Source of the DNA: an uncultured Ruminococcus sp.
GTDB taxonomy: Bacteria; Bacillota; Clostridia; Oscillospirales; Ruminococcaceae
Direction of reading: 5' to 3'
Assembly: GCF_947301925.1 (NCBI RefSeq)
Contig: NZ_CAMYUE010000002.1
Location: forward strand, 190,131-254,130
DNA: 64,000 nucleotides
The stretch's first letter is position 1. Each line of letters opens with the position of its first letter. This document shows positions 41,991 to 57,159 of the stretch, in pieces. The notes under the pieces were generated by a model that was given only the letters and a program-made list of their open reading frames with translations, was not told where the DNA came from and ran no database searches. The position numbers and the translations under genes are program-made.

Positions 41991-41998
41991 GCATAAAG

Positions 41999-42088
41999 AA
42001 AGAGCCTGGCTTTTAACCGCTATACTCATATAGCAGCTTTACGGGTGATATTGAGGGAGAACCCTTTTGAAAAAGGGTTCTCCCTCAA
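41999..42088 (+). repeat. Conserved 3' flank element (copy 1) ending in a terminator-like hairpin
   Basis: Roughly three-quarters identical by eye to the reverse complement of 57062..57150. It ends in the near-perfect palindrome TTGAGGGAGAACCCTTTT-GA-AAAAGGGTTCTCCCTCAA (42051-42088). Confidence 0.75.
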
Positions 42089-42096
42089 TTGCCACG

Positions 42097-42109
42097 GTTC
42101 TTAACGAAG
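42097..42109. other. Candidate left attachment site (attL core)
   Basis: GGTTCTTAACGAAG equals the right-end palindrome minus one base, and lies within 10 bp of the host terminator hairpin. Confidence 0.4.
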
Positions 42110-42302
42110 AAAATATTACATCAAATCGAATAGGACAGTTTTCCCCATACATTTAAGTCGGTACTTATAAAGAAGTTTTCCCAAAAGCTAATATGAAAGG
42201 TCTATACAGTAGGCAACAACACAAAGACAGACAGATACTTCATGTATTTTTGAAGTATCTGTCTTTTTCACTATAAAGAGGTCTGATATTTATACTGAGA
42301 AA

Positions 42303-43331
42303 TCAAAACGTTATCGGTGATATTTTTTCCTCTGGCTCATCGGGGAAGGCACGGTATTCACTCGGACTTTTGTCCAGTGCTCGACGGAAAGTTTCTGCAT
42401 AGTAACTCGCACCAGAAAACCCACACGCAAATGCGATCTCTGTAATGGTCATATTTGTATTTTTCAGCAGTGTAATGCTTTGTTTAAGTCGGAATTCATT
42501 GAGGTATTTCATTGGAGAAATAAAAATGTAGCGCTCGAACAGATTACCGCAGGTACGTTTGGAAACGTATCCAGCTATAGCAATGCGATTCAGTGTAAGT
42601 TTTTCGGAGTAATGCTTTTCGATAAAAGCGATCATTGCTTTCATCGAAGTAAGTTGGCTGCATTCGGTATGAGGTTTCTCGTCCGGGCGAATATTTTCAG
42701 TGATTTCGCTCCAGATCAGATTTACCAATCCAATCATAGCGCACTTCTCAGAGTTATCCTGATTATCCTTGAGAACAGAATACTCGATCGGTGCGAATGC
42801 TTTAGGCATAGCCTTGTCAATGTGCCGTTTTCTGATGATTGAAAACCAGTGTAGGATATTCTCATGCCACGTCGTCCCTTTTTGCAGTAGGATATAATCA
42901 AAAGTCGAATTGAGGATTGGCTGAACTGCATTCTTTTCGATATCTTCTGAGATACACAGGATCATCGGATGAAAAATCAGCAGATTATAACAACAGTCGC
43001 GTATATCTTTTAAACGAGCTGAATGAAGTCGCCGTGAGTTGATGAGCAATCCTTCACCCGATCTTACAGTGACAAGCTTTCCGTTTATGTTATAAACCGC
43101 CTCTCTCTCATTGGGAACAATCAGTTCGATATCCTCATGCCAGTGTGTCGGGACTGAAGCATTCGGATAGGCAGAAAATCGACCGCTGAAGAAGCCAATT
43201 GGGATATCGGTATAACTGTATCTGACTGTTTCGCTGCAGTCGCTGTTCACCTCCAGCTCATAACTATAACGTAGTTCCACTGATATCACTTTCCTTTTTG
43301 TTATAGTTCTCTGCAAAATCATGATAGACAT
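42303..43331 (-). CDS. AraC family transcriptional regulator (cupin + double HTH)
   Basis: 342 aa with a C-terminal AraC signature (MTITEIAFACGFSGASYYAETFRRALDKSPSEYR) and an N-terminal cupin-like sensor. Confidence 0.85.
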   Translation of the reverse strand: MSIMILQRTITKRKVISVELRYSYELEVNSDCSETVRYSYTDIPIGFFSGRFSAYPNASVPTHWHEDIELIVPNEREAVYNINGKLVTVRSGEGLLINSRRLHSARLKDIRDCCYNLLIFHPMILCISEDIEKNAVQPILNSTFDYILLQKGTTWHENILHWFSIIRKRHIDKAMPKAFAPIEYSVLKDNQDNSEKCAMIGLVNLIWSEITENIRPDEKPHTECSQLTSMKAMIAFIEKHYSEKLTLNRIAIAGYVSKRTCGNLFERYIFISPMKYLNEFRLKQSITLLKNTNMTITEIAFACGFSGASYYAETFRRALDKSPSEYRAFPDEPEEKISPITF

Positions 43332-43428
43332 CGCACATTTTCTGCGTTATAATGATAACATATAAATGTGCATAAGTCAACCGACTATTATTGACTTATG
43401 CCAATAGATGAATAATAGGGGGATAATT

Positions 43429-44982
43429 ATGAAAAGAGTAATAGCAATTCTTTTATCTCTTACGCTTCTTACATCAATGTCTGCTTGCAGCAACAGTGAA
43501 AACAGCTCGCTATCTACACAGGTAAAGACATCTGAGTCTGTTGAAAACACTGAGCCGATACATCTTACAAATAAGATGACCGAAACAGAGTTAGCCAAAG
43601 TGGATAAACATAGCCTTACGCTGCTTGACGCTCCTGAAGAGACCACAAATACAACAACCGAACAATCGGGGCATACGGTTAGAATTGAGTTCGCTTCAAT
43701 ACCGATTGATAAAATAATCACAGGTCTTGAGGCTGCAAAAGAAGAGCTTACCGACGAAGAATATGGGAAGCTTTATGAAAAATTTGACTCTTACATTGAA
43801 AGTAGTGAAGACTATACATACCCGAAGTATATTTTTGTAGACGATCAGAATATTTTTGATAATGCGCCCTTAATGCCCCCAACCTACGATGACGGAAAGA
43901 TAACTGTGACAGATACAAAATACAACAGTGAAACTGACAGTTATGAAACAACAACAAACACCTATGCTGATATGGACGACTACCTTGATTGGATACGCTG
44001 CAAGTTTAGAGACTGGAACTATCCTGAGGAAGAAATAGAAAAAATAGAAGAAAGAATTCTAATTGCAGACGAAGCATACAGAGATAGTAATTATGAAACG
44101 CTGCCAGAGGGCTCTGTTGTTTATTCTGAATCGGATTATAGCTATATCATCAGCACTGATGAAAACAAAGATTACCGGAATGAATGGGAGTTTGATCGTC
44201 AGGCTGTTGAAGACATCAAGGACAGCATTGATGAAATAGATATTTACGATGAAGAACTTGACAAGGCGTTTGTTGTTCATGTGACACTTCCGCCAGAATA
44301 TGACAACAAAAAAGAATATCCTGTAATCCTGCTCACAGACGGAATATGGCGTTTTGGCAATACTCCTGAGATGAGAAAAGTTATGGAGGACGGAAAAGCA
44401 GCACCTGTGATACTTGTGAGCATATGGTATTCCTACGATGTAGAAGACACGAGTGGAAGTAAGCGCTATAATGATCTTGTGTTAGAACGCAGCAAATCAC
44501 TTGATTTCATAACAGACAACCTGATGCCGTATCTTGGTGAGAACTACAGTATCGACTATAAGAATTCTACGCTCTACGGTCATTCTGATGGTGGTGTCTT
44601 CTCCCACTATGCACTCTTCAACTCTGACCTCTACGAAAATCAGCCATTCGGCAATTACATCATCGGCAGTCCAGCCTTCTGGGGACTCTATTATGATTAT
44701 CCGGATCTCAATCCCGAAGAATATGAGAAGGATTACGGATACTTTGACAGAAATGAAAAGCTCAGTAAAAGCGTGTTCCTATGCGCAGGCTCACAGGAGG
44801 ATCCTGACTATACAGACAGTTACAACGGACATGACACAACGCTTGAAGGCGTTGCAAAGCTGAAGGAACGGCTTGAATCGCATGGCGCCAATCTGACATA
44901 CAAGCTTTACGATTCACATCACTATCAATATGTACCCTCGATGCTTCTTGAATATCTGAAAGCGGAATATCCTGTGCAATAA
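43429..44982 (+). CDS. Secreted lipoprotein with a C-terminal PF00756-type esterase domain (siderophore-esterase/esterase-D-like)
   Basis: Lipobox LLTSMSAC. The C-terminal YPVILLTDG...LYGHSDGG nucleophile elbow resembles the Fes/IroE/BesA-type putative esterase family. The ATG start follows AGGGGGA (codon 8 of the track ORF). Confidence 0.75.
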   Translation: MKRVIAILLSLTLLTSMSACSNSENSSLSTQVKTSESVENTEPIHLTNKMTETELAKVDKHSLTLLDAPEETTNTTTEQSGHTVRIEFASIPIDKIITGLEAAKEELTDEEYGKLYEKFDSYIESSEDYTYPKYIFVDDQNIFDNAPLMPPTYDDGKITVTDTKYNSETDSYETTTNTYADMDDYLDWIRCKFRDWNYPEEEIEKIEERILIADEAYRDSNYETLPEGSVVYSESDYSYIISTDENKDYRNEWEFDRQAVEDIKDSIDEIDIYDEELDKAFVVHVTLPPEYDNKKEYPVILLTDGIWRFGNTPEMRKVMEDGKAAPVILVSIWYSYDVEDTSGSKRYNDLVLERSKSLDFITDNLMPYLGENYSIDYKNSTLYGHSDGGVFSHYALFNSDLYENQPFGNYIIGSPAFWGLYYDYPDLNPEEYEKDYGYFDRNEKLSKSVFLCAGSQEDPDYTDSYNGHDTTLEGVAKLKERLESHGANLTYKLYDSHHYQYVPSMLLEYLKAEYPVQ

Positions 44983-45034
44983 CAGATTGAACAAGCATCA
45001 GGGCATAGTACAGTGCTGATAAAGAAAAAATGTG

Positions 45035-45081
45035 CCATAGTATTTCTAATGAATTTGTCAGAAATACTATGGTAGTTTTTT
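45035..45081. terminator. Bidirectional terminator between the esterase and ECF ATPase genes
   Basis: 13-bp perfect stem CCATAGTATTTCT/AGAAATACTATGG with an A-run before and a T-run after. Confidence 0.85.
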
Positions 45082-45131
45082 ATATTGACAATGAAAATGA
45101 TGGGTAGGAAATTAAACGAGGTATCAATTAA

Positions 45132-46577
45132 TCAATTATCCGCAACACAGCCATTTTCAAGTCTGACAATATGATCGCAGCAGGAAAGAATAAACTCATT
45201 ATCGTGAGTAACAACAATAATTGTCTTGCCTATTTCTTTCAGCTTTTTTAGCTGGTTTGATACCTGTTTCATATGTGCAAGGTCAAGACCGCTGGTGGGT
45301 TCGTCAAAGATTATAACAGGCTTGCTTGAAGCCACCCCCGATGCGATTGCTGTACGCTGTTTCTGTCCGCCCGAAAGCGCCATGGGATGCGTATTGGCAT
45401 ACTCCAAAAGATCAAGCTGTGACAGTATTTCATCAGCTTTTTTTATTTTCTGCTCATCGGTCAGTAACTTATCCGTCATGCTCAGCATGACCTCATCACG
45501 CACGCTCTCTGTAAAAAGCTGGTGGTTCACGTCCTGCATTATCATATAACAAGAATGCAGACGATCTTTCGCTTTTAGCTTTTTGCCGTTCATTATGAGA
45601 GTACCTTTACACTTGCGTTCAAGTCCGCAGATATTTCGTGCGAGGGTGCTTTTGCCTGCGCCGTTGTGACCGATAATCGCAATGATATGATTTGCAGGTA
45701 ATTCGAGCCGAGGGATATTGATACCGTGCTTGCCGTCATTATAGGTAAAACGGAAATCCTCCAGTAACAGAACATCGCCTTGTACGTCTGTATTTTTTTG
45801 CGAACAGTGTATTTCGGGGAGCATCGTAGGACGTATACCCATTTTTTCGGTATCGTCAGCAGTAAGTTTTTTTATCTCTTCGGTAATCAGTTCTTTTGCA
45901 ATTCTGCCGTTTTCAAGTATCAGCATTCTGTCTGCAAGTTCACGCAGAAAATACAGACGATGCTCTGCGATAACTATGGTTTTGCCCTGTGACTTCCAGT
46001 CTGTCAGCACGGCTTTCAGCTTCTCTATCGCCTCGCTGTCAAGATTAGATGACGGTTCGTCAAGTACGATGATATCAGGCGACAGAACATTGATGCCTGC
46101 ACAGGCTATGATTTGCTTTTCTCCGCCCGAAAGCTCAAATATATTGCGATCAAGCAGTTTTTCTATGTGCATGGAAGCTGCTGTTGCAGTTATCGCTTTT
46201 GATATTTCAGCAGGCTCACAGCACTGATTTTCAGCGGCAAATGCGATCTCGTCAGTGGTATTCACATTGAAAAACTGCGAACGAGGATTCTGGAAAACAC
46301 TTCCGACTTTTTTAGCAGTTTCAAATATTGGTGTGTCGGGAACGCTCTTTCCGTCGATCATCACTTCACCATTCAGAGTTCCGCTGTAATAGTGAGGAAT
46401 AAGCCCGTTGATAAGCCTTGTGACCGTTGTTTTTCCGCAGCCTGAGCCGCCGGTCAGAACGATAAACTCGCCATTCTGTATCGTCAGGTCAAGACCGTTG
46501 ATACTTCCTTGTTCAATAGCCCTGCCGTTGGCATCTGTCGAGCTGTATGCAAATGTTACATTCCTGAATTCTATCAT
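45132..46577 (-). CDS. ECF transporter ATPase, fused double NBD (EcfA1-EcfA2)
   Basis: 481 aa with two sets of Walker A (GGSGCGKTT, GHNGAGKST), signature (LSGGEKQ, LSGGQKQR) and Walker B (VLDEPSS, IFDEPTS). Confidence 0.9.
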   Translation of the reverse strand: MIEFRNVTFAYSSTDANGRAIEQGSINGLDLTIQNGEFIVLTGGSGCGKTTVTRLINGLIPHYYSGTLNGEVMIDGKSVPDTPIFETAKKVGSVFQNPRSQFFNVNTTDEIAFAAENQCCEPAEISKAITATAASMHIEKLLDRNIFELSGGEKQIIACAGINVLSPDIIVLDEPSSNLDSEAIEKLKAVLTDWKSQGKTIVIAEHRLYFLRELADRMLILENGRIAKELITEEIKKLTADDTEKMGIRPTMLPEIHCSQKNTDVQGDVLLLEDFRFTYNDGKHGINIPRLELPANHIIAIIGHNGAGKSTLARNICGLERKCKGTLIMNGKKLKAKDRLHSCYMIMQDVNHQLFTESVRDEVMLSMTDKLLTDEQKIKKADEILSQLDLLEYANTHPMALSGGQKQRTAIASGVASSKPVIIFDEPTSGLDLAHMKQVSNQLKKLKEIGKTIIVVTHDNEFILSCCDHIVRLENGCVADN

Positions 46578-46586
46578 ATTCTCACC

Positions 46587-47309
46587 CTAAAATGCAAAGA
46601 ATAAAACGATCATAGCCAGTGTGCCGAACATCAGCAGCCAATCGTACAACCTGATACTGATCTGACAGATATGCGTTCGCTTTCCGCCTGCACACAGTCC
46701 CTTTGTCAGTGAAGCAGCTGAAAGCTCGTCCGCAATACGGACAGTTGACATCATGATCGGTACAAGCACATACTCGATATAAGTGAACGGATTCTTCACG
46801 CTCTGCCCGATCTCACGCATTTTCATGGCATCGTGGACACTACGGTATTCCTCGCTAAGTGTTGGAAAATAACGGAACATCACAGAAAACGGTATCGTGA
46901 TAAAATACGGAACGTGCATCCTGTCCATTGCAGTCATAAACTCGCTGACAGAGGTTGAGCGTACAGTGTACCAGCCCATCATATATCCGGGAACAAACCT
47001 TGATATGATACCACATAATATCATCAGTATCAGATTAGGCGCTCCGCTGATATTGGGGATCACACTGCCTTCACAAAATACAGAAAAAGCAATAAGTACG
47101 ACATAAATAAGTGCGGATTTTATGTGCCTGACTGTCAGAAGAAGCACAAACGGAATTGCTGCACATATCACTCTCAGAATGTATTCCACGCCGGCTGTTT
47201 TTCCGCCCACCATAATAAGACTGATCGCTATCAGCAGACAAAGTTTTGTTCTCGGATCGAGTTTCAGTACGCTTTTGTCCGAAGTTGATGAAAGTCCGAG
47301 TTCCATCAA
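46587..47309 (-). CDS. ECF transporter transmembrane (T) component, CbiQ/EcfT family
   Basis: 240 aa, polytopic. It sits between the S component and the ATPase, and its start overlaps the S-component stop. Confidence 0.8.
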   Translation of the reverse strand: MMELGLSSTSDKSVLKLDPRTKLCLLIAISLIMVGGKTAGVEYILRVICAAIPFVLLLTVRHIKSALIYVVLIAFSVFCEGSVIPNISGAPNLILMILCGIISRFVPGYMMGWYTVRSTSVSEFMTAMDRMHVPYFITIPFSVMFRYFPTLSEEYRSVHDAMKMREIGQSVKNPFTYIEYVLVPIMMSTVRIADELSAASLTKGLCAGGKRTHICQISIRLYDWLLMFGTLAMIVLFFAF

Positions 47310-47890
47310 GCCATACCTGCCTTACGGAAGTGCTTTCTGAGTACCTTTGCGCCAAGCAGACCGCCGATCAGTCCCCCGATGATACACATAGCTATCATAG
47401 TGAAGAACACCCATGTCGGAGTATATCCCGACATTTTATCGACGTATTCCTGACCGTATCCGTCAGCGAGCGAATTGAGATATGATTCACGGAATCCGAA
47501 GAAGAAAGCAATGACCATACCGAGCAGCCATAGACTGAATGTCGAAGAACCGATCACGCACGACTTGATGCTCTGATAATCACCGAGTTTCAGTACGATC
47601 TCTGTCAGCAATCCTGCACCGATACAGAAGATAAAAATCGGATAAGGGTGTCCTGTAATGAACATGAGAATTGCAATGATAACGCTTGTAATTGTGACCA
47701 TTCCGAAATGCTTTATCTTTGAAAAATACAGCATAAGCGGCATTCCTGCAAATATCGGAACAAGCAGCGGCATAAATACCATGAATATCGGGATAAATCC
47801 GATACAAGCGACTGCAAATGTTATCGCAAAATACAGTGCGGTAAAAATACCTACCGTGATAAGATCTTTGACCTCAAATTTCTTTTCCAT
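47306..47890 (-). CDS. ECF transporter S component, MptD/Trep_Strep-like
   Basis: 194 aa with 6 TM helices. N-terminus KDLITVGIFTALYFAITF. Family assignment is from remembered family features and the conserved 5-gene context. Confidence 0.7.
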   Translation of the reverse strand: MEKKFEVKDLITVGIFTALYFAITFAVACIGFIPIFMVFMPLLVPIFAGMPLMLYFSKIKHFGMVTITSVIIAILMFITGHPYPIFIFCIGAGLLTEIVLKLGDYQSIKSCVIGSSTFSLWLLGMVIAFFFGFRESYLNSLADGYGQEYVDKMSGYTPTWVFFTMIAMCIIGGLIGGLLGAKVLRKHFRKAGMA

Positions 47891-47908
47891 AAATATACTC
47901 CTTCAAAC

Positions 47909-49645
47909 TTAATTTTTCCAACCCGTGCTGACTGCACGTTTTGTGACCATGTTATGATAGATACCGCCCATATCCATAAGGCTCTTATGATCGCCCGACT
48001 CGGCTATCTCTCCGTCTTTGATAACCATGATGTTATCGGCATGAGCGATAGTATTGAGCCTGTGTGCGATGACGAGCAATGTCTTACCCTTGCAAAGCTC
48101 GGATATTGCCTGCTGTATGTAGCTTTCATTGTCAGCATCAACGCTTGCAGTCGCCTCGTCAAGAATGACAATGGGCGAATCTTTCAAAATACATCTTGCA
48201 ATTGAAAGCCGCTGTGCCTGACCGCCCGAAAGCGAAGCACCACCCTCGCCGATGACTGTATCAAATCCTTCGGGCAGCTCCATGATGAAATCATAGCAGC
48301 GAGCCTTCTTTGCAGCTTCGATGACTTCTTCACGGCTTGCATCGGGTCTACCGAGCGCGATATTGTTGTAGACCGTATCCTGAAACAGATACACCCTCTG
48401 GAACACCATACTGATATTATCCATAAGTGTTGCAAGCGGTATCTTTCGTATATCCGTACCGCGCAGAAGTATCTCTCCGCTTTTCACGTCCCAGAAGCGT
48501 GTCAGCAAACTTGCAATTGTGGATTTGCCGCCGCCGGACGGACCGACCAGTGCAGTCATTGTACCTTTGCCTGATTTGAATGATATGTCTTTCAGCACGT
48601 CTTTTTCGCCGTAGGCAAATGTGACATTGCGGTATTCTATCTCGGGAGCATTGCTGTTTTTCAGCATTTCTGCTCCGTTGTCAGAAAGCTCCTTTTCAGC
48701 AAACAGTGATTCAATTCTGTCCATACAAGCGTTCATTACCGTCAGCCTTGCAATCTGTCCGTAGAATGACTTCATCGGTACAAACAGATCAAACAGGAAC
48801 AGCAGCATACCGATATAGAAATTTAGTGGCATAGTTCCCGAAAAATAGAGATATGAGGATACTGCAAGGACTATAACGGTTCCGAAAGTGTATATCAGGT
48901 TCACTCCTGTCTGCCACGGTGCATGGTCGAACTCGAAGTCGAGATTGACCTTGCAGTTGAGCTCGAAGCTGTCGGTCAGCTCCTTTGATTTATCGCCCAT
49001 TAGGTTAAAAGTCTTGATGATTCCGATGCCCTCTGTAAAGTCAAGCACCGACTCCGTCAGCTTTTCTGAAGCCTCCTGACGTTCGTCTGAATGATGCAGG
49101 GTACTTTTTTTCATGGCAAAACCAAGCATGAGCATTCCCAATGTTACAATCAGGGAAATAAATCCTAAACGCCAGTCAAAGAAAAACATGAACAGCACCA
49201 TGATTGCCTGTGAAAACAGGTAACTCATCATATCCGCCAATGTCATCATGCAGTTTTCCTCGATGAACACCATATCCGTTGACAACACCGAGCTGATCTT
49301 TCCGATATTGCCCTCCGTAAAATATCCCATAGGCAGACGACGCAGATGCTCACCCAGTTTCATTCGCATATCCGCAAAAATCATATAACCTGCTGCACTT
49401 TGCAGTCTGTCGGCGAAATACTGGAGCAATGCCTGCACAGCAACGCTTGCCACAAGTGCAACAGCTATGTAAACACAATGCGTTTTCGTGACCGTTCCCT
49501 CTATGAATGCCGTAACAACGAAATATGCCAGCATAATAGGAACTTTCATCAGCATCCCTTTCAAAAATGAAAGGAACATAGCACCGTATATTCTGCCTTT
49601 GTATTTTCCCGAAACGCCGAGAATCCGTCCGATAAGTCCTATCAT
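47909..49645 (-). CDS. ABC transporter permease/ATPase, exporter fold (half-transporter B)
   Basis: 578 aa with a 6-TM domain plus an NBD (GPSGGGKST, LSGGQAQR, ILDEATAS). Confidence 0.9.
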   Translation of the reverse strand: MIGLIGRILGVSGKYKGRIYGAMFLSFLKGMLMKVPIMLAYFVVTAFIEGTVTKTHCVYIAVALVASVAVQALLQYFADRLQSAAGYMIFADMRMKLGEHLRRLPMGYFTEGNIGKISSVLSTDMVFIEENCMMTLADMMSYLFSQAIMVLFMFFFDWRLGFISLIVTLGMLMLGFAMKKSTLHHSDERQEASEKLTESVLDFTEGIGIIKTFNLMGDKSKELTDSFELNCKVNLDFEFDHAPWQTGVNLIYTFGTVIVLAVSSYLYFSGTMPLNFYIGMLLFLFDLFVPMKSFYGQIARLTVMNACMDRIESLFAEKELSDNGAEMLKNSNAPEIEYRNVTFAYGEKDVLKDISFKSGKGTMTALVGPSGGGKSTIASLLTRFWDVKSGEILLRGTDIRKIPLATLMDNISMVFQRVYLFQDTVYNNIALGRPDASREEVIEAAKKARCYDFIMELPEGFDTVIGEGGASLSGGQAQRLSIARCILKDSPIVILDEATASVDADNESYIQQAISELCKGKTLLVIAHRLNTIAHADNIMVIKDGEIAESGDHKSLMDMGGIYHNMVTKRAVSTGWKN

Positions 49646-51393
49646 GCTCTCACCTCATTTCCGATAGTCCAGCTTGCTCTTGCTTCGCTGCTGTTCCATA
49701 ACTTCTGATACTCCACACAGCTTTGCAGGAGCTTTTCGTGAGTGTCGGCGGCGATGATATTTCCGTCATTCATAACGCATATCTTGTCGGCGTTCACGAT
49801 AGTCTGTAAACGGTGAGCAATGACAAGAACGGTCTTGCCCTTTATTATCTCAGCAATAGCAGAGTTCATTTTCTCCTCGTTCTCAGGATCAATGAAAGCT
49901 GTTGCTTCGTCAAGCACGATAACAGGAGCATCTTTCAGTATCGCCCTTGCAAGAGATATTCGCTGACGTTCACCGCCTGACAGCATCTTTCCGCCGTCGC
50001 CTGCCATAGTGTCGATGCCTTTTGGAAGACGTTTGAGGAACTCTCCACATTGTGCTTTTTCTGCTGCCGCCATCACTTCTTCACGACTCGCATCAGGCTT
50101 GCCGATGAGGATATTCTCGTACAGCGTTGTGTTGAACAAAAACTGTTCCTGCGATACATAGGAGATATGATCGTTGAGTGCTTCGATGCTCATCTCGGTA
50201 ATATCCTGACCACCCAGTGTGATACGTCCGCTGCTGAGGTCGTAGTAGTGAACAAGCAGCTTTGCCAGTGTGGACTTACCGCTGCCGGATTCTCCCACAA
50301 GAGCTGTGAGCGTCCCCTCACCGAGTTCAAGGGATACACCGTGCAGGACTTCTTTTTCCTTGTAAGCAAAACGTACATCTTCAAATTTTATGATATGTGA
50401 ATTACCGATAAACGAATTATCATTAGTTTTTAAAGGTTCACTATCCATTGCTTTTTCAATTTCATCTATCTTATAGCCAAGCTGTGGGAATTTGCCTGCA
50501 AAGCTCAGTGCTTTCAGCAGCGGTACACCAATCGACAGCGACAGGCAGAACACAAGTACCAGATTGGCAAGTGTTGATGTTCCATTGATAACAAACAGCG
50601 TTCCGACAGGCAGCATGACAAGAGCCGTACATGGAAGTATCGCACTGTAAAGAGCCATCCAGCCCCAGCAAGCTTTATACCACGCAAGGGTAAAGTCACG
50701 ATAGCTTCGGATATCGGTTGCATAGCGCTGATAGGATTCACCGTCCCGTCCAAACACCTTGACGACTTCCATACCGTTGACATACTCGATAATGGTTGCA
50801 TTCATCTTAGCTGATGCGGCGTAGTAGGCGTTCATTCGTTTCATACCCGTGCGGAACATCATGCCCATTGCAAACAATCCGAGCGGCAGAGAGCAGAGAG
50901 ACAGAAGTGCCAGTTTCCAGTCTGCGAAGAACATACATATAATCGCCATCAATGCCATTGCAAGGTTGGAGATGCCTTCGGGAATTGCGTGTGCCAGCAG
51001 AAGTTCCACCTGATCTATATCATCGGTAAACAACTTTTTTATTCTGCCGTTACCCATATCCTGTATTGTGCCGAGCGGCTGACGCTCCAGCTTTTTTTGC
51101 AATGAAATACGGATATTTTTTAGTGTGTTGTATGCGGAAATGTGCGAGTATTTCAATCCCAGTACATATAAGATAGCGTAGGCTAACTCACATACAAAAA
51201 TAACAGCTATATGCACTGCATAATAGCCTGCGGATAATGATTCGCCGCCAATCAGCGGCTTGATAATGCGGTACACCATAAAAAACGGCACAGCGGAGGC
51301 GATCAGTCCTGCGAACATGACCGCCAGAGCCGCATAGGTATACTTGATGTAGTCGCCCATATAGGGCTTTATCTTGTTAAACACTGTTTTCAT
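49642..51393 (-). CDS. ABC transporter permease/ATPase, exporter fold (half-transporter A)
   Basis: 583 aa with a 6-TM domain plus an NBD (GESGSGKST, LSGGERQR, VLDEATAF). It overlaps both neighbours, suggesting coupled translation. Confidence 0.9.
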   Translation of the reverse strand: MKTVFNKIKPYMGDYIKYTYAALAVMFAGLIASAVPFFMVYRIIKPLIGGESLSAGYYAVHIAVIFVCELAYAILYVLGLKYSHISAYNTLKNIRISLQKKLERQPLGTIQDMGNGRIKKLFTDDIDQVELLLAHAIPEGISNLAMALMAIICMFFADWKLALLSLCSLPLGLFAMGMMFRTGMKRMNAYYAASAKMNATIIEYVNGMEVVKVFGRDGESYQRYATDIRSYRDFTLAWYKACWGWMALYSAILPCTALVMLPVGTLFVINGTSTLANLVLVFCLSLSIGVPLLKALSFAGKFPQLGYKIDEIEKAMDSEPLKTNDNSFIGNSHIIKFEDVRFAYKEKEVLHGVSLELGEGTLTALVGESGSGKSTLAKLLVHYYDLSSGRITLGGQDITEMSIEALNDHISYVSQEQFLFNTTLYENILIGKPDASREEVMAAAEKAQCGEFLKRLPKGIDTMAGDGGKMLSGGERQRISLARAILKDAPVIVLDEATAFIDPENEEKMNSAIAEIIKGKTVLVIAHRLQTIVNADKICVMNDGNIIAADTHEKLLQSCVEYQKLWNSSEARASWTIGNEVRA

Positions 51394-52012
51394 CGCCTTT
51401 CTTTAGCATTATGACCTCCTGCCAGTTGAAGAAACGACAGACGATACGGCAATGCTCCTCGATCTGCTTCCATGACATATCGTGAATGATCGGTTCGCAT
51501 ACGCAAGTCCAAAAAGACGAGATCAGCACATGAAATTCTTCTCTGGTAACTTCTGCTTGAGCAAGTCCTCTTTTGTACGCCTCTGCGTAGAACTGCTCAT
51601 AGGCATAACTCATTTTCGTGACATATTCGTGGTTGAAATTCTCATAGCGCGTGCCGGCAGCCTTGTCTATCAGCAAAGAGACAGTCTCACGGTTATTGTA
51701 GAGAAGCTTGAAAAGAGGTATCATGGATTCATACGACATCACCCATGAATCATATATCTCATCGTCCGAAAGTACCGAAAAATCCAAATCTGAACGGCTT
51801 TCAACGAAATGATTCAGCTCATCTGCTATATCCTCCACAACAGCGCTGAACAGGTCTTCCTTGCCCTTATATCGCTTGTAGACTGCGCCCGTTGTGATGT
51901 CGGCGTTCTCGCAAATTGTTTTCAGTTCTGCTTTCAGATAGCCGTGCTTTATGAATTCTGTCTGCGCACTGGCACGAAGTCGTGGGTCGATACTTTTATC
52001 AGGTATTGCCAT
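51377..52012 (-). CDS. TetR/AcrR family transcriptional regulator
   Basis: 211 aa with an N-terminal TetR HTH (TICENADITTGAVYKRYKGKEDLF). Confidence 0.88.
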   Translation of the reverse strand: MAIPDKSIDPRLRASAQTEFIKHGYLKAELKTICENADITTGAVYKRYKGKEDLFSAVVEDIADELNHFVESRSDLDFSVLSDDEIYDSWVMSYESMIPLFKLLYNNRETVSLLIDKAAGTRYENFNHEYVTKMSYAYEQFYAEAYKRGLAQAEVTREEFHVLISSFWTCVCEPIIHDMSWKQIEEHCRIVCRFFNWQEVIMLKKGDENSV

Positions 52013-52034
52013 TTTATCCCTCCTACGAAAATTT

Positions 52035-52048
52035 GATTATCAATAATC
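52035..52048. promoter_or_regulatory. Palindromic candidate operator upstream of tetR
   Basis: GATTAT-CA-ATAATC (6-2-6 palindrome) lies about 22 nt upstream of the tetR ATG, next to its RBS. Confidence 0.4.
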
Positions 52049-52352
52049 CACTTATCATTATAGCATATGCTAACTACGATGTCAAGGGGTTATTCATATG
52101 ATTTGTATGAACAAACAAAAAACGACGGTGCGTTGATTTGAATGCATCGCCTGTATCGCTAACGCAGTCAAGGATTTTGTGAATAAGCGTATGGTACTGC
52201 AAAAAAACTGAGAGTATGTTCTTTAAACGGTCAATCACGATGAAAAAATGAGAGAGATAATAAATAAAGGCTGAATTTGTGCGCAATGCATATTGACCAC
52301 CTCCTCAAAAAATCGAACGTTTGTGCAATCGAACAAAGTTTCTTGAAATCTC

Positions 52353-52381
52353 TTGACAGAACTAATGTTTCGCGATATTAT
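52353..52381 (+). promoter_or_regulatory. Strong sigma-A promoter with no downstream ORF
   Basis: TTGACA (52353-58), a 17-nt spacer, then TATTAT (52376-81). Confidence 0.65.
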
Positions 52382-52387
52382 GATAAT

Positions 52388-52900
52388 GTCCCTTAATGGG
52401 AGAGTAGCTTGAAAATCGAATATCAACACATCAGTGTGCAGCAAGACCAGTGCCGGCAAAACCGACAAGCCGCGAGCTTCCGTACGCCACGACCTCGAAA
52501 GAGCGAGCGATAAATACGTGAAGGCGGTAGGAGAGACTTAGCGAGTCGAGTCAAGGATGACCAACAGAACTCAGCTGAGTGCCATGGGAATACACGTTTA
52601 AGGATTGTGGACTCCCCGCCGCTCCTATAATGGCAATGACAGCCGGCTTGCGCGCCCATCCGCACGTGCGGCTCTGATTCCGTAAGGGCAGAGAGACAAG
52701 GAGCTATGTGAGAGTTGAGGACGACTCTCGGCTGATGTGTTCCCGGCTTCGGAGGGTGCAGGCGTATGCCTGTAGGAGAATATCAGAAGCCTCGGAATGA
52801 GGAAAACGTCATGGCACAGCGCCATGATAAGGTACCTCCGCGGGGGTACAAGGCTATCAAATTGATAGTCAGCATTTCAAGGGGCAAACTATGCCCTTTT
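52388..52900 (+). ncRNA. Candidate large structured noncoding RNA (about 510 nt, unclassified)
   Basis: It is bounded by the promoter above and an intrinsic terminator. There is no + strand ORF of 60 aa or more. The G+C-rich core is dense in short perfect hairpins, including GAAA, GTAA and GCTT loops. Confidence 0.4.
52879..52900 (+). terminator. Intrinsic terminator 1 of the noncoding unit
   Basis: AAGGGGCA/TGCCCTTT stem with a 5-nt loop and a T-run. Confidence 0.6.
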
Positions 52901-52972
52901 ACAGATGAAATGCGGTTTTGAATTTGGAAAAATGCATGGCACGGATAGTTATGCCCAAATATAAGGTTAAGA

Positions 52973-53016
52973 GAAGGCAGAGTAACGTCAAAGGCGTCAC
53001 TCTGCCTTTTTATTTT
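52973..53016 (+). terminator. Intrinsic terminator 2
   Basis: Perfect 10-bp stem AAGGCAGAGT/ACTCTGCCTT followed by TTTTATTTT. Confidence 0.8.
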
Positions 53017-53033
53017 GTCAAAAATTAAATATA

Positions 53034-53077
53034 AAGCGCTCAGCGGTTCGTCACGGACTGCTGTGCGCTTTTTTGTT
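53034..53077 (+). terminator. Intrinsic terminator 3 (imperfect)
   Basis: AGCGCTCAGCGG/CTGCTGTGCGCT stem (2 mismatches) followed by T6GTTT. Confidence 0.5.
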
Positions 53078-53252
53078 TGCACATAAGCTACAAAAATCAG
53101 TGGCATCTCTTGTGCAAAAGCTCCGAACAAATGGTTAAAACAAAATTTTATTTTGTAAAAACGCCATTTTTCTGCTTAGTAATATATGGAGGGTGGTGAT
53201 AACAATGAGCAATTCAATCGCAAACTGAACTCAAATCGAAAGGAGAAATCGA

Positions 53253-54500
53253 ATGAAAAAACTTGAAACTGTAAGCTGTGAAACACTTATGACAACGCCG
53301 TTGAAGCCAATGGAATTTCTCGTAGACGATCTGATAGCGCAGGGACTGTACATCCTCGCTGGCAATCAGAAGGTCGGCAAGTCTTGGCTCGCACTCGACA
53401 TCTGCCTCAGCATTGCAAAGGGAGAAACGGTGCTCGGACGCGAAACAACTCAGGGCACGGCACTCTACCTCTGCCTTGAGGACAGCTACGTCCGACTGCA
53501 AAATCGCCTCTACGAGCTGACCGATGAGCCGACCGACAAGCTCTATTTTTCTCTGCTTGCCAATACGATAGGCGACGGACTTGAAGAACAGATACGCGAT
53601 TTCAAAAATGAACACACTGACCTGAAATTCGTCGCCATCGACACCTTGCAGAAGGTCAGGAGCGGCGACGAGCAGACCTACGCCTCCGACTATCGGGAGA
53701 TGAGTGTGCTGAAAAATCTCGCCGCCGAGCTCGGTATCACAATACTGCTTGTACATCACCTCCGCAAGTGCAAGGACAGTGACCCCTTCAAAATGATATC
53801 GGGAACGAGCGGTATTACAGGCTGCGCGGACGGCAGTTTCGTACTTAAACGCGAGGACAGGTCTCAGCCGTATGCCACTCTGAGCGTGGTTGGCAGAGAC
53901 ATCGAGGGCGGCGACATCGCTCTGAAAATGATCGGCAACCGCTGGACTGTGACCGAGCCTGTGAAGCAAACTCCGCCCGACAACTTTGCATTCGCCGTCC
54001 ACGACTTCATGGTCGAGAGAGGTCAACTGAAAGTGACTGCGACCGAGCTTGCCAATGAACTCAACGAGCACTTCAGACTGATTGTCCCGAACAATATGAT
54101 AACCAAGAAGCTCGTTCAGCACGGCATTGAACTGCAAGGCTATGGCGTCCGCTTCGTGATTAAGCACAGCCACGGAAAGCGTTGGCTGGAGCTGACCTAC
54201 GACCGTTCGGGTGACAGCGGTGACGGCAGAACGATGTGGGCATCGCCGAGCTGTCCTGCCGCTACCCGAGAGCATGAAAAGCTCTTAGATTCGTCATCTG
54301 AGTTGGGTGACAGCTTGACTGAGGGTGACAGCAAAACCGCTTCGGGTGACAGCTCGGAGTACGCGATAGTCAACGGCAGACCTGTCCCGATAACGCGCAT
54401 GAACATCAACGATGTCATCAACCAATGCGCCGAGCGTCTGAGGGAAAGGATAGCAGCCGAGCGCGGTATAGTCGTCCCCGAATTCAAGTTCGCGCCGTAA
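53253..54500 (+). CDS. RepA-like RecA-superfamily ATPase (AAA_25 type) of mobile elements
   Basis: 415 aa with Walker A AGNQKVGKSW, Walker B-like FVAIDTLQK and LLVHHLRK, typical of RepA/DnaB-like element ATPases. Confidence 0.8.
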   Translation: MKKLETVSCETLMTTPLKPMEFLVDDLIAQGLYILAGNQKVGKSWLALDICLSIAKGETVLGRETTQGTALYLCLEDSYVRLQNRLYELTDEPTDKLYFSLLANTIGDGLEEQIRDFKNEHTDLKFVAIDTLQKVRSGDEQTYASDYREMSVLKNLAAELGITILLVHHLRKCKDSDPFKMISGTSGITGCADGSFVLKREDRSQPYATLSVVGRDIEGGDIALKMIGNRWTVTEPVKQTPPDNFAFAVHDFMVERGQLKVTATELANELNEHFRLIVPNNMITKKLVQHGIELQGYGVRFVIKHSHGKRWLELTYDRSGDSGDGRTMWASPSCPAATREHEKLLDSSSELGDSLTEGDSKTASGDSSEYAIVNGRPVPITRMNINDVINQCAERLRERIAAERGIVVPEFKFAP

Positions 54501-54957
54501 GCCGATATTTGCCGCGAGAGTACCGAGGTCGAGTGAGTATCCCACCTGCGGCGATAGAAGCGATTGTCGCGCAACGTGGAGCGAGTGTGTGGATGTATCC
54601 GCGAAGGAAAGAAGCTGCGGCGAGCGACAAAAAGTCTTCCCTTTTGGGAAGGCAAGCATCGCAGACGGCATTCCGCCTGCCGCTGAAAACGGGAGGACCC
54701 GAGCCCCTTTGTGGTTTGCAGGAAAAAGGCTGGCGTCAAAGCGCCTGCCGATTCACCTCGGAGGGCAGTGCCCGCCGAAATATCGGAACTTGCAGGAATT
54801 GAAAATTGGGGGCAAAATGAGAAATGGAGAAAAAGTGTGGGGTCAAAATTTGAAAAGAGCCATGATAAGGGCTATATTTCGGAAGGAGTGACTGGCGTCA
54901 GAGCGTATATTTACGATAATTAAGAATTGGAAATCGTGTGACATGAAAGGAGCTTGT

Positions 54958-55119
54958 ATGCAAGAGAAAAAACAGGAAGAAATACTTTGCGTTGACAAGA
55001 CAATGATCATTGACGGTCAGAAGTTTGAGATCACTCTCGTGTTCAAGTCTCCCGACAATGAGCACGAAACGGTCGAGGAGAAAATAAGACACTTGATAAA
55101 CGGCGACAAAATAAAGTGA
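54958..55119 (+). CDS. TnpW-like small protein (53 aa)
   Basis: Not in the track because it is under 60 aa. GGAG lies 5 nt before the ATG. Translation: MQEKKQEEILCVDKTMIIDGQKFEITLVFKSPDNEHETVEEKIRHLINGDKIK. Size, position just upstream of the recombinase and the ...EKI..LI... tail resemble TnpW-family ORFs. Confidence 0.5.
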   Translation: MQEKKQEEILCVDKTMIIDGQKFEITLVFKSPDNEHETVEEKIRHLINGDKIK

Positions 55120-55217
55120 GAATAGGTCTGGACTTTCGAGCCGAGTAGTGATATACTATTGGTGTATCCTATTCGGTTTGATTCCCAGAACGAGTACGTT
55201 CGGAACAGGAGGAAACA

Positions 55218-56855
55218 ATGAGAGAATCAAATACGGAACAGATAACAGCACTGTATTGCCGCCTGAGTCAAGAGGATATGCGTGCGGGAGAGTCGCTGTC
55301 AATTGAAAATCAAAGACTAATGTTGAAGGACTACGCCGACAAAAACGGCTTCCGCAATTGTCAATATTACATCGACGACGGATACAGCGGCACCGATAAT
55401 ACCCGTCCAGAGTATGTTCATATGCTTGATGATGTGCAAAACGGATTGGTCGGAACAGTTATTGTCAAAGACCAGTCGCGGCTTGGACGTGACCATCTTG
55501 AAACCGATAGACTAATGGAGTTGGTGTTCCCTGCATATGATGTTCGCTTCATTGCGGTAACAGACGGAGTTGATTCCGCCAACGGCATCAATGAAATGTC
55601 AGGCATACGTAACCTGTTCAATGATATGTACGCTCGCGATACAAGTAAGAAAATCAGAGCTGTGCAGCGAGCGAAAGGTGAGCGAGGAGAGCGCGTCGGA
55701 ACGACAACTCCCTACGGTTACATGAAGGACGAAAACAAGCATCTGATACCTAATCCCGAAACATCTCCGATAGTAAAACGCATATTTGAAATGAGTGCAG
55801 ATGGAAAAGGCGTCCGCAAGATATGCGACATACTTACAGCCGAGGAAGTGCTTACTCCAAGTGCGTATTCGGCTCATAAATCGGGCAAGCAGAAAACAAG
55901 CTCACCGTACCGCTGGTCGCTGAAAACGGTCAGAGAGATGTTAAAGAATCGAATCTACTGCGGCGATACCATCAACTTCAGCACCTACACTAAATCATAC
56001 AAGCTGAAAAAGACGCTCAAGAACGAGCCCGAAAAAATGCTTATCTTCGAGAACACACACGAAGCTATAATCAGCCGAAAGTTGTTCGACATCGTGCAGA
56101 AACACTACGAAGGAAGAAAGAAGTCGGACAAGTTCGGTGAAACTGATAAGTATGCAGGCTACCTTTACTGCGCGGAGTGCGGCTCAAAGCTCTATCTTCA
56201 CCGAGCGAGAACGCTTGACCCAAAGAAGAACAATTATATGTGCGGAGGCTATCAGAGTCGTGTCACAGACTGCACTGCGCACTACATCAGGGAAAAGGTA
56301 CTCGACGATATTGTGCTGCGCTATCTGAGACAGGTCGTAAGCTATGCGAAAGACAAGTCCGACGAGTTCTACTCAATGGCAATGGCGAATGGTGAAGCTG
56401 AAGCGAAAAAGCAGTTCAAGGAGAACGAAAAGCTCCGCAGTGAATATGAAACAAAAATCAGTCAACTCGACAATGCGATACAGCTTCTCTTCATGGACAG
56501 GTCAAACGGAAAGATCACGGATGAGCGCTACGATATACTCTCTGCAAACTTCGAGAAGGAGCAGTCAGAGATAAAAGTCAAGCTCAGCACTCTCGATTCT
56601 CAGCTGGACAAGATGAAAGTACGCGAGAAACGTGTCAGGGAGTTCATCAACAACGCCAAGCAGTACACAGAGATACATAGGCTCACTCCCGAGATACTGA
56701 AGTCTTTCATCGGGCGCATTGAAGTCTACGAAAAGGCAGTCAAGCGCTCGAGAACCTGTGGAAACCGCATCGTCATCTACTTCACATTTTCAGCTGATAA
56801 GGCGATAGCTATCGACAGAGTGATTACTGAAAATGGCGATATACTGATACTTTAA
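55218..56855 (+). CDS. Large serine recombinase
   Basis: 545 aa with an N-terminal resolvase domain (ALYCRLSQED with the catalytic Ser, DRLGRD), a recombinase domain, a zinc ribbon (CAECGSKLY...C..C) and a C-terminal coiled coil. Confidence 0.92.
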   Translation: MRESNTEQITALYCRLSQEDMRAGESLSIENQRLMLKDYADKNGFRNCQYYIDDGYSGTDNTRPEYVHMLDDVQNGLVGTVIVKDQSRLGRDHLETDRLMELVFPAYDVRFIAVTDGVDSANGINEMSGIRNLFNDMYARDTSKKIRAVQRAKGERGERVGTTTPYGYMKDENKHLIPNPETSPIVKRIFEMSADGKGVRKICDILTAEEVLTPSAYSAHKSGKQKTSSPYRWSLKTVREMLKNRIYCGDTINFSTYTKSYKLKKTLKNEPEKMLIFENTHEAIISRKLFDIVQKHYEGRKKSDKFGETDKYAGYLYCAECGSKLYLHRARTLDPKKNNYMCGGYQSRVTDCTAHYIREKVLDDIVLRYLRQVVSYAKDKSDEFYSMAMANGEAEAKKQFKENEKLRSEYETKISQLDNAIQLLFMDRSNGKITDERYDILSANFEKEQSEIKVKLSTLDSQLDKMKVREKRVREFINNAKQYTEIHRLTPEILKSFIGRIEVYEKAVKRSRTCGNRIVIYFTFSADKAIAIDRVITENGDILIL

Positions 56856-56863
56856 CAACAAAA

Positions 56864-56890
56864 ATCTCCGAGGGGCTATCCCTCGGAGAT
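56864..56890 (+). terminator. Stem-loop after the recombinase stop
   Basis: 11-bp perfect stem ATCTCCGAGGG/CCCTCGGAGAT, with no clear U-tract. Confidence 0.5.
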
Positions 56891-56905
56891 ATAATAAAAC
56901 CAATG

Positions 56906-56919
56906 TTCGTTAACGAACG
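56906..56919. other. Candidate right attachment site (attR core)
   Basis: Perfect 14-bp palindrome GTTCGTTAACGAAC about 50 bp past the recombinase stop. Confidence 0.4.
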
Positions 56920-56954
56920 TGAACTAAACTCCCTTCCTAAAACTTTTAGCATTA

Positions 56955-57032
56955 AATTTAGCCCTTACAGGGCGCTCCCCGGTTATTACCGGATCTCACG
57001 TTTTGTGGAGAGCGCCCTGTACGGGCTAAATT
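56955..57032. repeat. Large inverted repeat (23-bp arms, 1 mismatch) with a nested hairpin
   Basis: AATTTAGCCCTTACAGGGCGCTC ... GAGCGCCCTGTACGGGCTAAATT. The loop contains CCGGT-TAT-TACCGG, and each arm is itself a GCCC-N5-GGGC hairpin. Confidence 0.85.
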
Positions 57033-57061
57033 CAGTTATAAAGTCTTTGGAAAAGGGGTTC

Positions 57062-57150
57062 GGGGAAAGAACCTTTCCTCAGAAAGGTTTGTCCCCGATA
57101 ATTACGCATAAACCTCTATATAAGCATCACGGTTAAAGTCGGGCTCTTTT
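57062..57150 (-). repeat. Conserved 3' flank element (copy 2, inverted)
   Basis: Its reverse complement aligns with 41999..42088. It contains the hairpin GGGGAAAGAACCTTTC-CTCA-GAAAGGTTTGTCCCC. Confidence 0.75.
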
Positions 57151-57159
57151 CCGTTATTA

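Follow-up and report, generated by a model that had tools for sequence, protein, structure and literature searches.

A Probable Mobile Island with a TnpX/TndX-like Large Serine Recombinase Splits a Dispersed Repeat in a Rumen Ruminococcus

Introduction

Large serine recombinases of the TnpX/TndX type are described, in the available part of PMC2475636, as integrating and excising DNA without accessory factors, with the TndX enzyme of Tn5397 acting in both directions and needing no such factor, and the accessible sections of PMC3158075 and PMC5704250 give them a 2-bp site. In the part of Durrant et al. (PMC10083194) that is available, the domain DUF4368 is reported for 63% of the enzymes of a multi-targeting clade, TndX-like transposases among them, versus 0.73% of site-specific enzymes, the example of a multi-targeting enzyme has a TT core, and such enzymes may target sequences at many genome sites. 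Integrative islands that lack a relaxase and bear an origin of transfer (oriT) have been named iOriTs in a preprint of which the accessible portion is used here (Ares-Arroyo et al., 2026; 10.64898/2026.01.13.699239). Herein we analyze a 14,839-bp island in a 64,000-nucleotide stretch of an uncultured Ruminococcus sp. genome (contig NZ_CAMYUE010000002.1, positions 190,131 to 254,130 of the forward strand), which we refer to as the window and in whose positions coordinates are given unless a contig is named. In our assessment the island is likely an integrated mobile element, belonging to a family found in rumen Ruminococcus and moved by its own TnpX/TndX-like recombinase.

Results

The Island Splits a Repeat at an AA Dinucleotide

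The island occupies 42089-56927, which amounts to 14,839 bp when a single copy of an AA core is included, and splits a repeat of the type termed miniature inverted-repeat transposable element (MITE)-like between 42088 and 56926, as seen by BLAST of both flanks against the island's own genome (G000). In uninterrupted copies of the repeat elsewhere in G000 the flanks 42011-42088 and 56926-57135 are contiguous with a 2-base overlap and 93-98.7% identity. On contig C12 the left flank corresponds to 62068-62144 and the right flank to 62143-62352, and on contig C2 they correspond to 123518-123592 and 123591-123801, respectively. A search of the same genome also returned 95-100% identical recurrences, on many contigs, of a sequence that begins exactly at window position 56926. 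Because the flanks carry two A residues before the island and three after it, versus three in the intact repeat copies, a 2-bp AA is common to both junctions, and comparison with the uninterrupted copies reveals this identical 2-bp core and no longer target duplication. The shared AA is the trace that would be expected of the 2-bp staggered exchange of a serine recombinase. The features that define the locus are as follows.

40443-41990, + strand: host dockerin gene, left of the island and convergent with the right host gene
42014-42088, + strand: left part of the split repeat (B arm), with the terminal inverted repeat (TIR) from 42014 (match at C2:232144) and a perfect hairpin
42087-42088, no strand: putative left AA crossover core, at the 2-base flank overlap on uninterrupted copies; AA in 17/17 related left ends
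42089-42109, + strand: left end (P' arm), containing CACGGTTCTTAACGAAG
56905-56925, + strand: right end (P arm), the palindrome GTTCGTTAACGAAC and then GTG
56926-56927, no strand: putative right AA crossover core, at the same overlap; AA in 18/19 related right ends
56928-57135, + strand: right part of the split repeat (B' arm), with an internal inverted repeat (56927-57060), a second hairpin and the right TIR
57160-58785, - strand: host esterase gene with carbohydrate-binding module and dockerin, right of the island

A first-pass annotation of this DNA had placed the island between convergent dockerin (+) and esterase (-) genes, which is borne out, and had taken the whole 14.8 kb to lie between the recombination sites, for which we now have the paralogous uninterrupted repeats, the left arm in 17 elements and a copy of the island at another locus in a second species (G141). 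It had also named sequence motifs as the island ends; these motifs are indeed present at both edges, but the true junctions, the AA cores, are 8 bp further out on each side. Since the comparison genomes were drawn from GTDB, one per species, the host locus can be compared between species only. In three other species (G124, G074 and G106) the orthologous host genes are neighbors, with 160-310 bp between them, and in G106 the intergenic region contains plain terminators from which the repeat is absent. The order of events at this locus would have been a convergent gene pair with its terminator, then the MITE-like repeat, and then the island.

The MITE-like Repeat as a Landing Site

An alignment of seven full copies from G000 (C12:62068-62352, C2:123518-123801 and copies on C18, C10, C3, C20 and C1) yields a repeat of 285 bp, or of 345 bp with a 60-bp insert that is present in 5/7 copies, and the right part beside the island is 94-98.6% identical to seven other copies. 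The repeat has the characteristics of a MITE, being short, non-coding, bounded by terminal inverted repeats and present in many copies. The TIRs are 20 bp, the terminal arms at 42012-42033 and 57116-57137 are 82% complementary, and the left TIR has 10 matches in G000 with at most one mismatch. A perfect hairpin with 19-bp arms (42050-42089) belongs to the repeat, and the left edge motif is 7 bp beyond it. What had been annotated as a host terminator hairpin is therefore the internal hairpin of the repeat and not that of the host. Homologous flanks were likewise reported at the 3' ends of the two host genes, and such flanks exist, but they consist of the TIRs of the repeat plus the halves of a split terminator rather than of host 3' untranslated regions. 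The DNA outside every copy of the repeat forms an inverted repeat with itself, such that each copy is centred in a different palindrome. Because the flanks of every copy pair in this way, the repeat seems to target terminator hairpins, or palindromic terminators, for its own insertion.

In G124 (C14, about 3150-3400) the orthologous intergenic region is filled by a second repeat type, made of GGCTAACGG/GGCTAATGG units, which is uninterrupted there and presents a G+C-rich palindrome centred on AA. This palindrome is the insertion point for three related elements (rows L012/L094 on G022:C71, L061 and L096).

The End Arms and a Subterminal 16-mer

The palindrome to the right of the recombinase gene is present, as first described, with 14 nt beginning 50 bp past the stop codon, although its coordinates (56905-56918) are one base off the earlier figure, and the left copy lacking one base is confirmed at 42096-42109. 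The 12-mer TTCGTTAACGAA has a single occurrence in the window (56906-56917) and is weak when taken alone, as 0.15 matches with at most one mismatch are expected and at least one is found in 14 of 100 shuffles. The edge motifs are considered to be beyond chance because they are conserved in the ends of related elements and not because of such counts. When 56905-56925 is read toward the core and 42089-42109 away from it, the two arms are imperfect inverted repeats, with CACG equidistant from the core in both and TTAACGAA in the same register. By their arrangement the edge motifs are thus recognizable as the inverted arms of a predicted large serine recombinase site, and the proposal that related palindromic ends serve TnpX/TndX-type recombinases is supported by conservation at 17 left and 19 right related ends. 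A common half-site register for attB and attP was sought by eye and, as none was convincing, is not claimed. Three further features are listed below.

42120-42135, + strand: subterminal 16-mer, copy 1, the inverted partner of 55167-55182
55167-55182, - strand: subterminal 16-mer, copy 2, past a promoter-like site and ahead of the recombinase start
56864-56890, no strand: terminator-like hairpin after the recombinase gene, kept in the family

The 16-mer occurs exactly twice in the window, in inverted orientation, where none would be expected (100 shuffles). Copy 1 lies 33 bp in from the left end, and 17/17 left ends contain a related motif, while copy 2 is retained in 9/9 aligned family members. 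The 16-mer may be a protein-binding site that ties the left end to expression of the recombinase.

The Recombinase and Its Upstream Region

The gene for the large serine recombinase reads outward, as had been proposed, and is preceded by a small open reading frame (ORF).

55218-56855, + strand: large serine recombinase, 545 aa, with PF00239, PF07508, PF13408 and PF14287
55129-55157, + strand: promoter-like site before the recombinase gene, TGGACT-17-TATACT with TG, from a consensus match alone
54943-55119, + strand: small ORF, weakly TnpW-like (PF14202, E 0.063)

The domain matches of the recombinase include PF00239 (E 1.9e-21), PF07508 (E 3.6e-23), the zinc-ribbon PF13408 (E 3.6e-11) and, at residues 462-524, DUF4368 (PF14287, E 5.7e-15). 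Among solved structures its best relative is 2mhc_A, the catalytic domain of TnpX (residues 4-122, E 5e-30), in which the serine of YERLS aligns with the catalytic Ser17 (YCRLS), and identity to a gene annotated as tndX is 36.9%, with 96% of the protein covered. The small ORF had been listed as a TnpW-like ORF of 53 aa; it is present but is 58 aa long, or 53 aa if the second Met is taken as the start, and its likeness to TnpW is weak, with an atlas score of 0.90 to a cluster that has TnpW in 35% of its members.

Related Elements in Rumen Ruminococcus

A scan of 151 genomes of the genus with the left-arm pattern gave 41 matches versus two in the control. Of these, 30 were inspected, and they comprise 17 true left ends, accepted where the conserved subterminal motif continues, 12 chance matches (L055, L063, L066, L068, L070, L072-L075 and L078-L080) and one right end (L069). 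AA directly precedes the arm in 17/17 left ends, 13 of which are at the hairpin of the repeat, one at the second repeat type and three elsewhere. Right ends were accepted by context, that is, where the terminator hairpin of the family is found upstream, and 19/24 matches were kept; L086, L088, L090 and L093 were dropped and L102 is a left end in reverse. AA follows the arm in 18/19 right ends, and it is succeeded by the repeat in 11, by the second repeat type in two and by other DNA in six. The 36 ends fall into three target classes, namely, repeat type 1, repeat type 2 and others. Both ends are on one contig in seven elements, of 14,839, 14,582, 8,424, 18,409, 5,213, 26,526 and 8,430 bp.

Related recombinases in G014, G011 and G022 are 87-93% identical, and the right ends of these relatives keep the arm followed by the same position of the repeat. 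The exception is G022:C71, in which the arm, itself identical, and AA lead into unrelated DNA. The recombinase there shares 90% identity with that of G014:C12, and the two elements have the same right arm in different targets. Their differences (L010 versus L012) cluster at residues 205-240 and 315-350, which are the recombinase-domain and zinc-ribbon regions.

The cargo of the related elements is varied. In G074 (R. flavefaciens ND2009), where both junctions are in the repeat and the backbone is 76-90% identical, it includes FRG, endonuclease, HerA-like, dynamin-like and SLOG genes, a defence-like set, and in G077:C21 it consists of an ABC/FtsX transporter and a two-component system, with no AAA_25 gene. 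In the other species represented by G141, the cargo of our island is found at 96% identity with the same left junction in different flanking DNA at a different locus, and because it stands behind that junction in different flanks we take the cargo to travel with the ends. The right end of the G141 copy, from about window position 56802, is derived from a sister clade, and the copy is therefore chimeric. The switch (L041, G141:C20, about 2200-2450, reverse) is near the recombinase stop codon, the sister-clade recombinases being 63-66% identical, and the end joins the second hairpin of the repeat, about 135 bp of repeat sequence being absent. Two elements in a single repeat copy seem to have recombined here, and members of the sister clade apparently insert at another position of this repeat. 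Another relative (L106, G048:C53:72000-78000) is 5.2 kb long and has both family ends, a recombinase gene reduced to its last ~570 nt, and an interior with ORFs of 637 and 633 aa. The constant part of the family is the left arm with the subterminal 16-mer and, on the right, the oriT-like region, the tnpW-like gene, the recombinase and the right arm, and the sequence between them is exchangeable cargo. The evidence supports assigning the island to the TnpX/TndX-like multi-targeting serine recombinase elements, a kind that is already known. A literature search on R. flavefaciens serine recombinases and on large serine recombinases together with MITEs found no description of this family, with the limit that the supplementary tables of PMC10083194 may list the enzyme.

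Cargo and Backbone of the Island

The remaining features of the island, from left to right, are listed below.

42303-43331, - strand: AraC-family regulator (PF12833, E 7.6e-18)
43408-44982, + strand: 524-aa protein with a C-terminal esterase domain (PF00756, E 1.3e-15)
45132-47890, - strand: energy-coupling factor (ECF)-type transporter (importer), from domain matches, comprising a duplicated ATP-binding cassette (ABC) ATPase (45132-46577), CbiQ/T (46587-47309) and an MptD/Trep_Strep S component (47306-47890)
47909-51393, - strand: two ABC exporter half-transporters of 578 and 583 aa (PF00664 and PF00005)
51377-52012, - strand: TetR-family regulator (PF00440, E 3.3e-8)
52272-53083, + strand: conserved noncoding stretch, start of the backbone, 79-92% identical in the G074 and G077 elements
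53253-54500, + strand: AAA_25/DnaB-like ATPase ("RepA-like"), 415 aa (PF13481, E 1.3e-26)

No credible ORF is found in the gap of about 1.2 kb between the TetR and AAA_25 genes or in that of about 450 bp between the AAA_25 gene and the small ORF. The noncoding stretch at 52272-53083 is more conserved than the neighboring genes in related elements that carry AAA_25, and 52873-53083 has a weak match to RF03532 (SQ2397, a cis-regulator of a helix-turn-helix (HTH) factor) at 34.6 bits versus a cut-off of 100; Rfam gave no match above threshold across 41800-57400. The RepA-like ATPase that was part of the initial description is upheld as the AAA_25 protein, which matches PHROG primase/helicase families and is found in some relatives only. 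The cargo is a mosaic. The esterase block (42303-44982) is found by itself in G111 and G045 (86-89% identity) and the ECF/ABC/TetR block (45132-52012) by itself in G138 and G111 (84% identity), with a step in G+C content from 0.40 to 0.45 between the two blocks.

An oriT-like Region

Between the AAA_25 gene and the small ORF is a region that is shared with mobilization loci.

54501-54705, + strand: oriT-like region, with a hairpin at about 54636-54651 and then an invariant core at about 54654-54686

Among 30 nikA loci in 81 genomes, 21 have a match to about 54501-54710 within 140-335 nt before nikA, and 16 of the matches include the core. The arms of the hairpin vary with full compensation, with three variants in the nikA alignment and a fourth in another alignment, and in the alignment of the nikA loci an invariant stretch of about 33 nt directly follows the variable hairpin. 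A compensated variable hairpin and then an invariant core is the usual oriT layout of mobilization (MOB) systems. Within G000, the segment 54560-54850 recurs with 84% identity on C4 beside a recombinase that is only 37% identical, and a 45-nt piece recurs at two contig ends (C12 and C1), where a NikA/MobC-like gene, with a PF03432 relaxase after it, begins 65-110 nt further downstream. The core occurs in this genome in the island, on C4, at the two nikA loci (C12 and C1) and in one unrelated match. There are three PF03432 relaxase matches and three PF02534 VirD4-like matches in G000, so that potential helpers are co-resident. The elements at L167 (G000:C4:14000-23000), L168 (G000:C2:438500-448000), L170 and L171 are other DUF4368 or serine recombinase elements of the genus, in which a DUF6076 protein and a 121-aa HTH_36/DnaD_N-like protein are encoded immediately before the oriT-like region.

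In 3/14 sister loci the AAA_25 gene, the oriT-like region, nikA, the relaxase gene, the tnpW-like ORF and the recombinase gene are found in this order; two further loci retain a relaxase fragment, and the tnpW-like ORF is upstream of the recombinase in 13/14. A domain scan of 20 ORFs of the island gave no relaxase, coupling-protein or phage structural domain. The description of a minimal island devoid of conjugation, mobilization and phage genes is thus accurate for these ORFs but the island is minimal in its genes only, as the oriT-like region is present. Because 54501-54705 has its homologue immediately before nikA-relaxase in the sister elements, it is probably an orphan oriT, and since the sister loci hold nikA-relaxase beside the same region, the island looks like a derivative that has lost these genes and kept the oriT. 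Its transfer between cells would then probably depend, in trans, on relaxases and mating pores whose genes lie elsewhere in the genome.

Discussion

A Proposed Mechanism and Its Alternatives

We propose that the recombinase would pair the imperfectly inverted end arms, 56905-56925 and 42089-42109, and exchange strands at the 2-bp AA core, so that a circle is released and the target restored. The circle would re-insert at an AA within a preferred sequence, most often at the one spot just past the first hairpin of the 285-bp repeat, which is itself inside terminators. The boundaries, the core, the domain make-up and the target preference are read directly from the genomes, as are the family and the homology of the oriT-like region, and from them we infer excision, the circle, bidirectional recombination without a helper, nicking at the oriT-like site and mobilization in trans.

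Metagenomes were surveyed for the joints that such a mechanism predicts using the Logan contigs of four runs among 24 listed. A joint of 42086 to 56926, which skips 14,839 bases and has two bases that fit both sides, was rejected as an empty site. It was seen in X1 at a depth of 41.8 (side of 25 bases) and in X3 at a depth of 5.07 (side of 20), and is uninformative because the paralogous repeats give the same joint, the sides are shorter than 30 and the depth is that of a repeat. In X1, which may be the sample of origin, 30/30 bins have cover. In X5 there were host-flank contigs with 0-1 differences and almost no island cover, where lack of cover proves nothing.

Several observations weigh against an island of this kind moving in this way. 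No circle joint is listed in the Logan contigs, which drop rare forms, and a scan of metagenome contigs with the left host protein, aimed at an empty site, gave seven loci, the best 66% identical and none from this species. The "visibly lower G+C" of the first-pass annotation is weak, with 0.450 for the island versus 0.483 for the genome and 19.8% of 622 windows of the same size equal or lower; the content is clearly low only in 42089-45500 (0.402). As the island is not singled out among genome windows, G+C was dropped as a marker of foreign origin. The right-arm pattern gave 24 matches versus 28 in the control and on its own provides no statistical evidence, and the PF14202 match of the small ORF scores 13.5 bits versus a cut-off of 25, so that its assignment to TnpW is below threshold. 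The G141 copy may be immobile, given its chimeric right end. The contigs with the G000 relaxases stop inside repeated sequence, leaving their context incomplete, and the oriT reading rests on position and homology, where a shared promoter, leader or structured RNA could also fit the covariation.

This last point leads to a different view of 54501-54900, as a cis-regulatory leader or small RNA for tnpW and the recombinase, and for nikA-relaxase, with the island spread by transformation or transduction. RNAalifold predicts 48 pairs, four with compensatory changes, with several G-U pairs on the + strand, and the conservation reaches about 54900, past the part common with the nikA loci, all of which would suit an RNA. 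However, the position upstream of nikA-relaxase and the layout of a hairpin and a ~33-nt core are usual for an oriT, and no Rfam family is matched, and we regard an RNA as possible but rather unlikely.

The island might also be a fixed remnant that arrived by serine recombination and no longer moves, with the copies in other species reflecting old events, and the Logan contigs with neither a circle nor an empty site, the chimeric right end in G141 and the 5.2-kb relative with both ends and a truncated recombinase gene (last ~570 nt) would agree with this. Yet the recombinase frame is intact with its catalytic Ser aligned, the arms and the AA core are likewise intact and agree with the consensus of the family, and the split repeat is 98.6% identical to other copies, which makes the insertion recent on that scale. 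Moreover, the cargo in G141 is 96% identical, versus about 72% for the orthologous host genes of that species against G000. We consider a fixed remnant improbable.

Far less credit is due to a phage satellite, in which the AAA_25 primase/helicase-like ATPase would replicate the circle and a helper phage would package it. The match of this protein to PHROG primase/helicase families is in its favor, but no capsid, terminase, portal or packaging-related domain was found in the 20 ORFs scanned, the nikA-relaxase genes of the sister elements follow the logic of conjugative mobilization, and AAA_25 is absent from several family members. Finally, that the mobile unit is the right 2.4-4.7 kb only (the oriT-like region, tnpW and the recombinase, with or without AAA_25), the 10 kb of transporters and esterase being host DNA, is hardly credible, for while many genomes share just window 54560-56927, and the ABC/TetR block is 75-78% identical in many genomes without the module, in the uninterrupted repeats it is 42088, and not a point at 52-54 kb, that is joined to 56926, the left arm (42089-42109) forms an inverted pair with the right one and is kept in 17 elements, G141 has cargo and module together with the same left junction at another locus, and in three species 160-310 bp separate the orthologous host genes.

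With the island taken as a mobile element driven by its own recombinase, a broader scheme can be entertained, although we put it forward tentatively and hold it to be somewhat more doubtful than not. It would involve hitch-hiking in three layers, with a repeat that colonizes terminators, TnpX-like elements that are specialized on it, and oriT-only members that are mobilized by their siblings. In such a scheme the MITE-like repeat would spread ready-made landing sites, the sister clade would be specialized on the other position of the repeat, and the 16-mer at the left end and in the promoter region would couple the state of the element to recombinase expression.

The island offers a cleanly delimited, natural multi-targeting serine recombinase for which the arms, the 2-bp core and the preferred target can be read from genomes, together with at least seven relatives with paired ends and different cargo. 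It illustrates the movement of transporter, esterase and defence-like gene sets between rumen Ruminococcus species and suggests that a small repeat can serve as a dispersed landing pad, and the orphan oriT-like region is offered as an explanation for the spread of an island that has no transfer genes. For genome engineering, the recombinase and its sites of roughly 45 bp are a candidate tool with a defined target motif.

Comparison with Known Systems

The island resembles the integrative mobilizable elements Tn4451/Tn4453 of C. perfringens / C. difficile in that its recombinase is closest to TnpX in the PDB, its cargo is between the ends and there is a small TnpW-like ORF, although the latter is a weak likeness. 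It differs in its core, which is AA here and GA in Tn4451, in having a recombinase of 545 aa located at the right end and reading outward, and in its strong preference for one site in a repeat. The sharing of a 2-bp core by both ends (PMC3158075 and PMC5704250, in their available parts) and a low or multi-site integration specificity (PMC5704250) are further points in common. Tn4451 has the MobV relaxase TnpZ according to the same part of PMC5704250, whereas no Mob gene and, in the 20 ORFs scanned, no relaxase domain of this or another type was found in the island, and the sister elements use NikA and a PF03432 relaxase. With Tn5397 of C. difficile the resemblance is to the tndX-annotated gene (36.9% identity over 96%), but Tn5397 is conjugative with transfer genes of its own and the island has none.

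Similarly, the island is like the multi-targeting clade of Durrant et al. (PMC10083194), as far as the accessible sections describe it, in its DUF4368 and in having relatives that are 90% identical in different targets, and the dinucleotide core of the example given there, TT, is AA on the other strand. It differs in that the repeated target is identified as one particular MITE-like repeat, in which 13/17 left and 11/19 right ends share a single position. The available portion of the iOriT preprint (10.64898/2026.01.13.699239) describes islands that, like the one described here, are delimited by att sites, lack relaxase and pore genes and have homology to the region upstream of a co-resident relaxase operon. 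That study concerns six nosocomial species and hitchers that are unrelated to their helpers beyond the oriT, whereas we are dealing with rumen Ruminococcus, a putative oriT function, and helper candidates that are close sister elements. The known categories are unchanged by these findings, and with its probable orphan oriT the island would have its place among the oriT-only integrative elements, a known kind.

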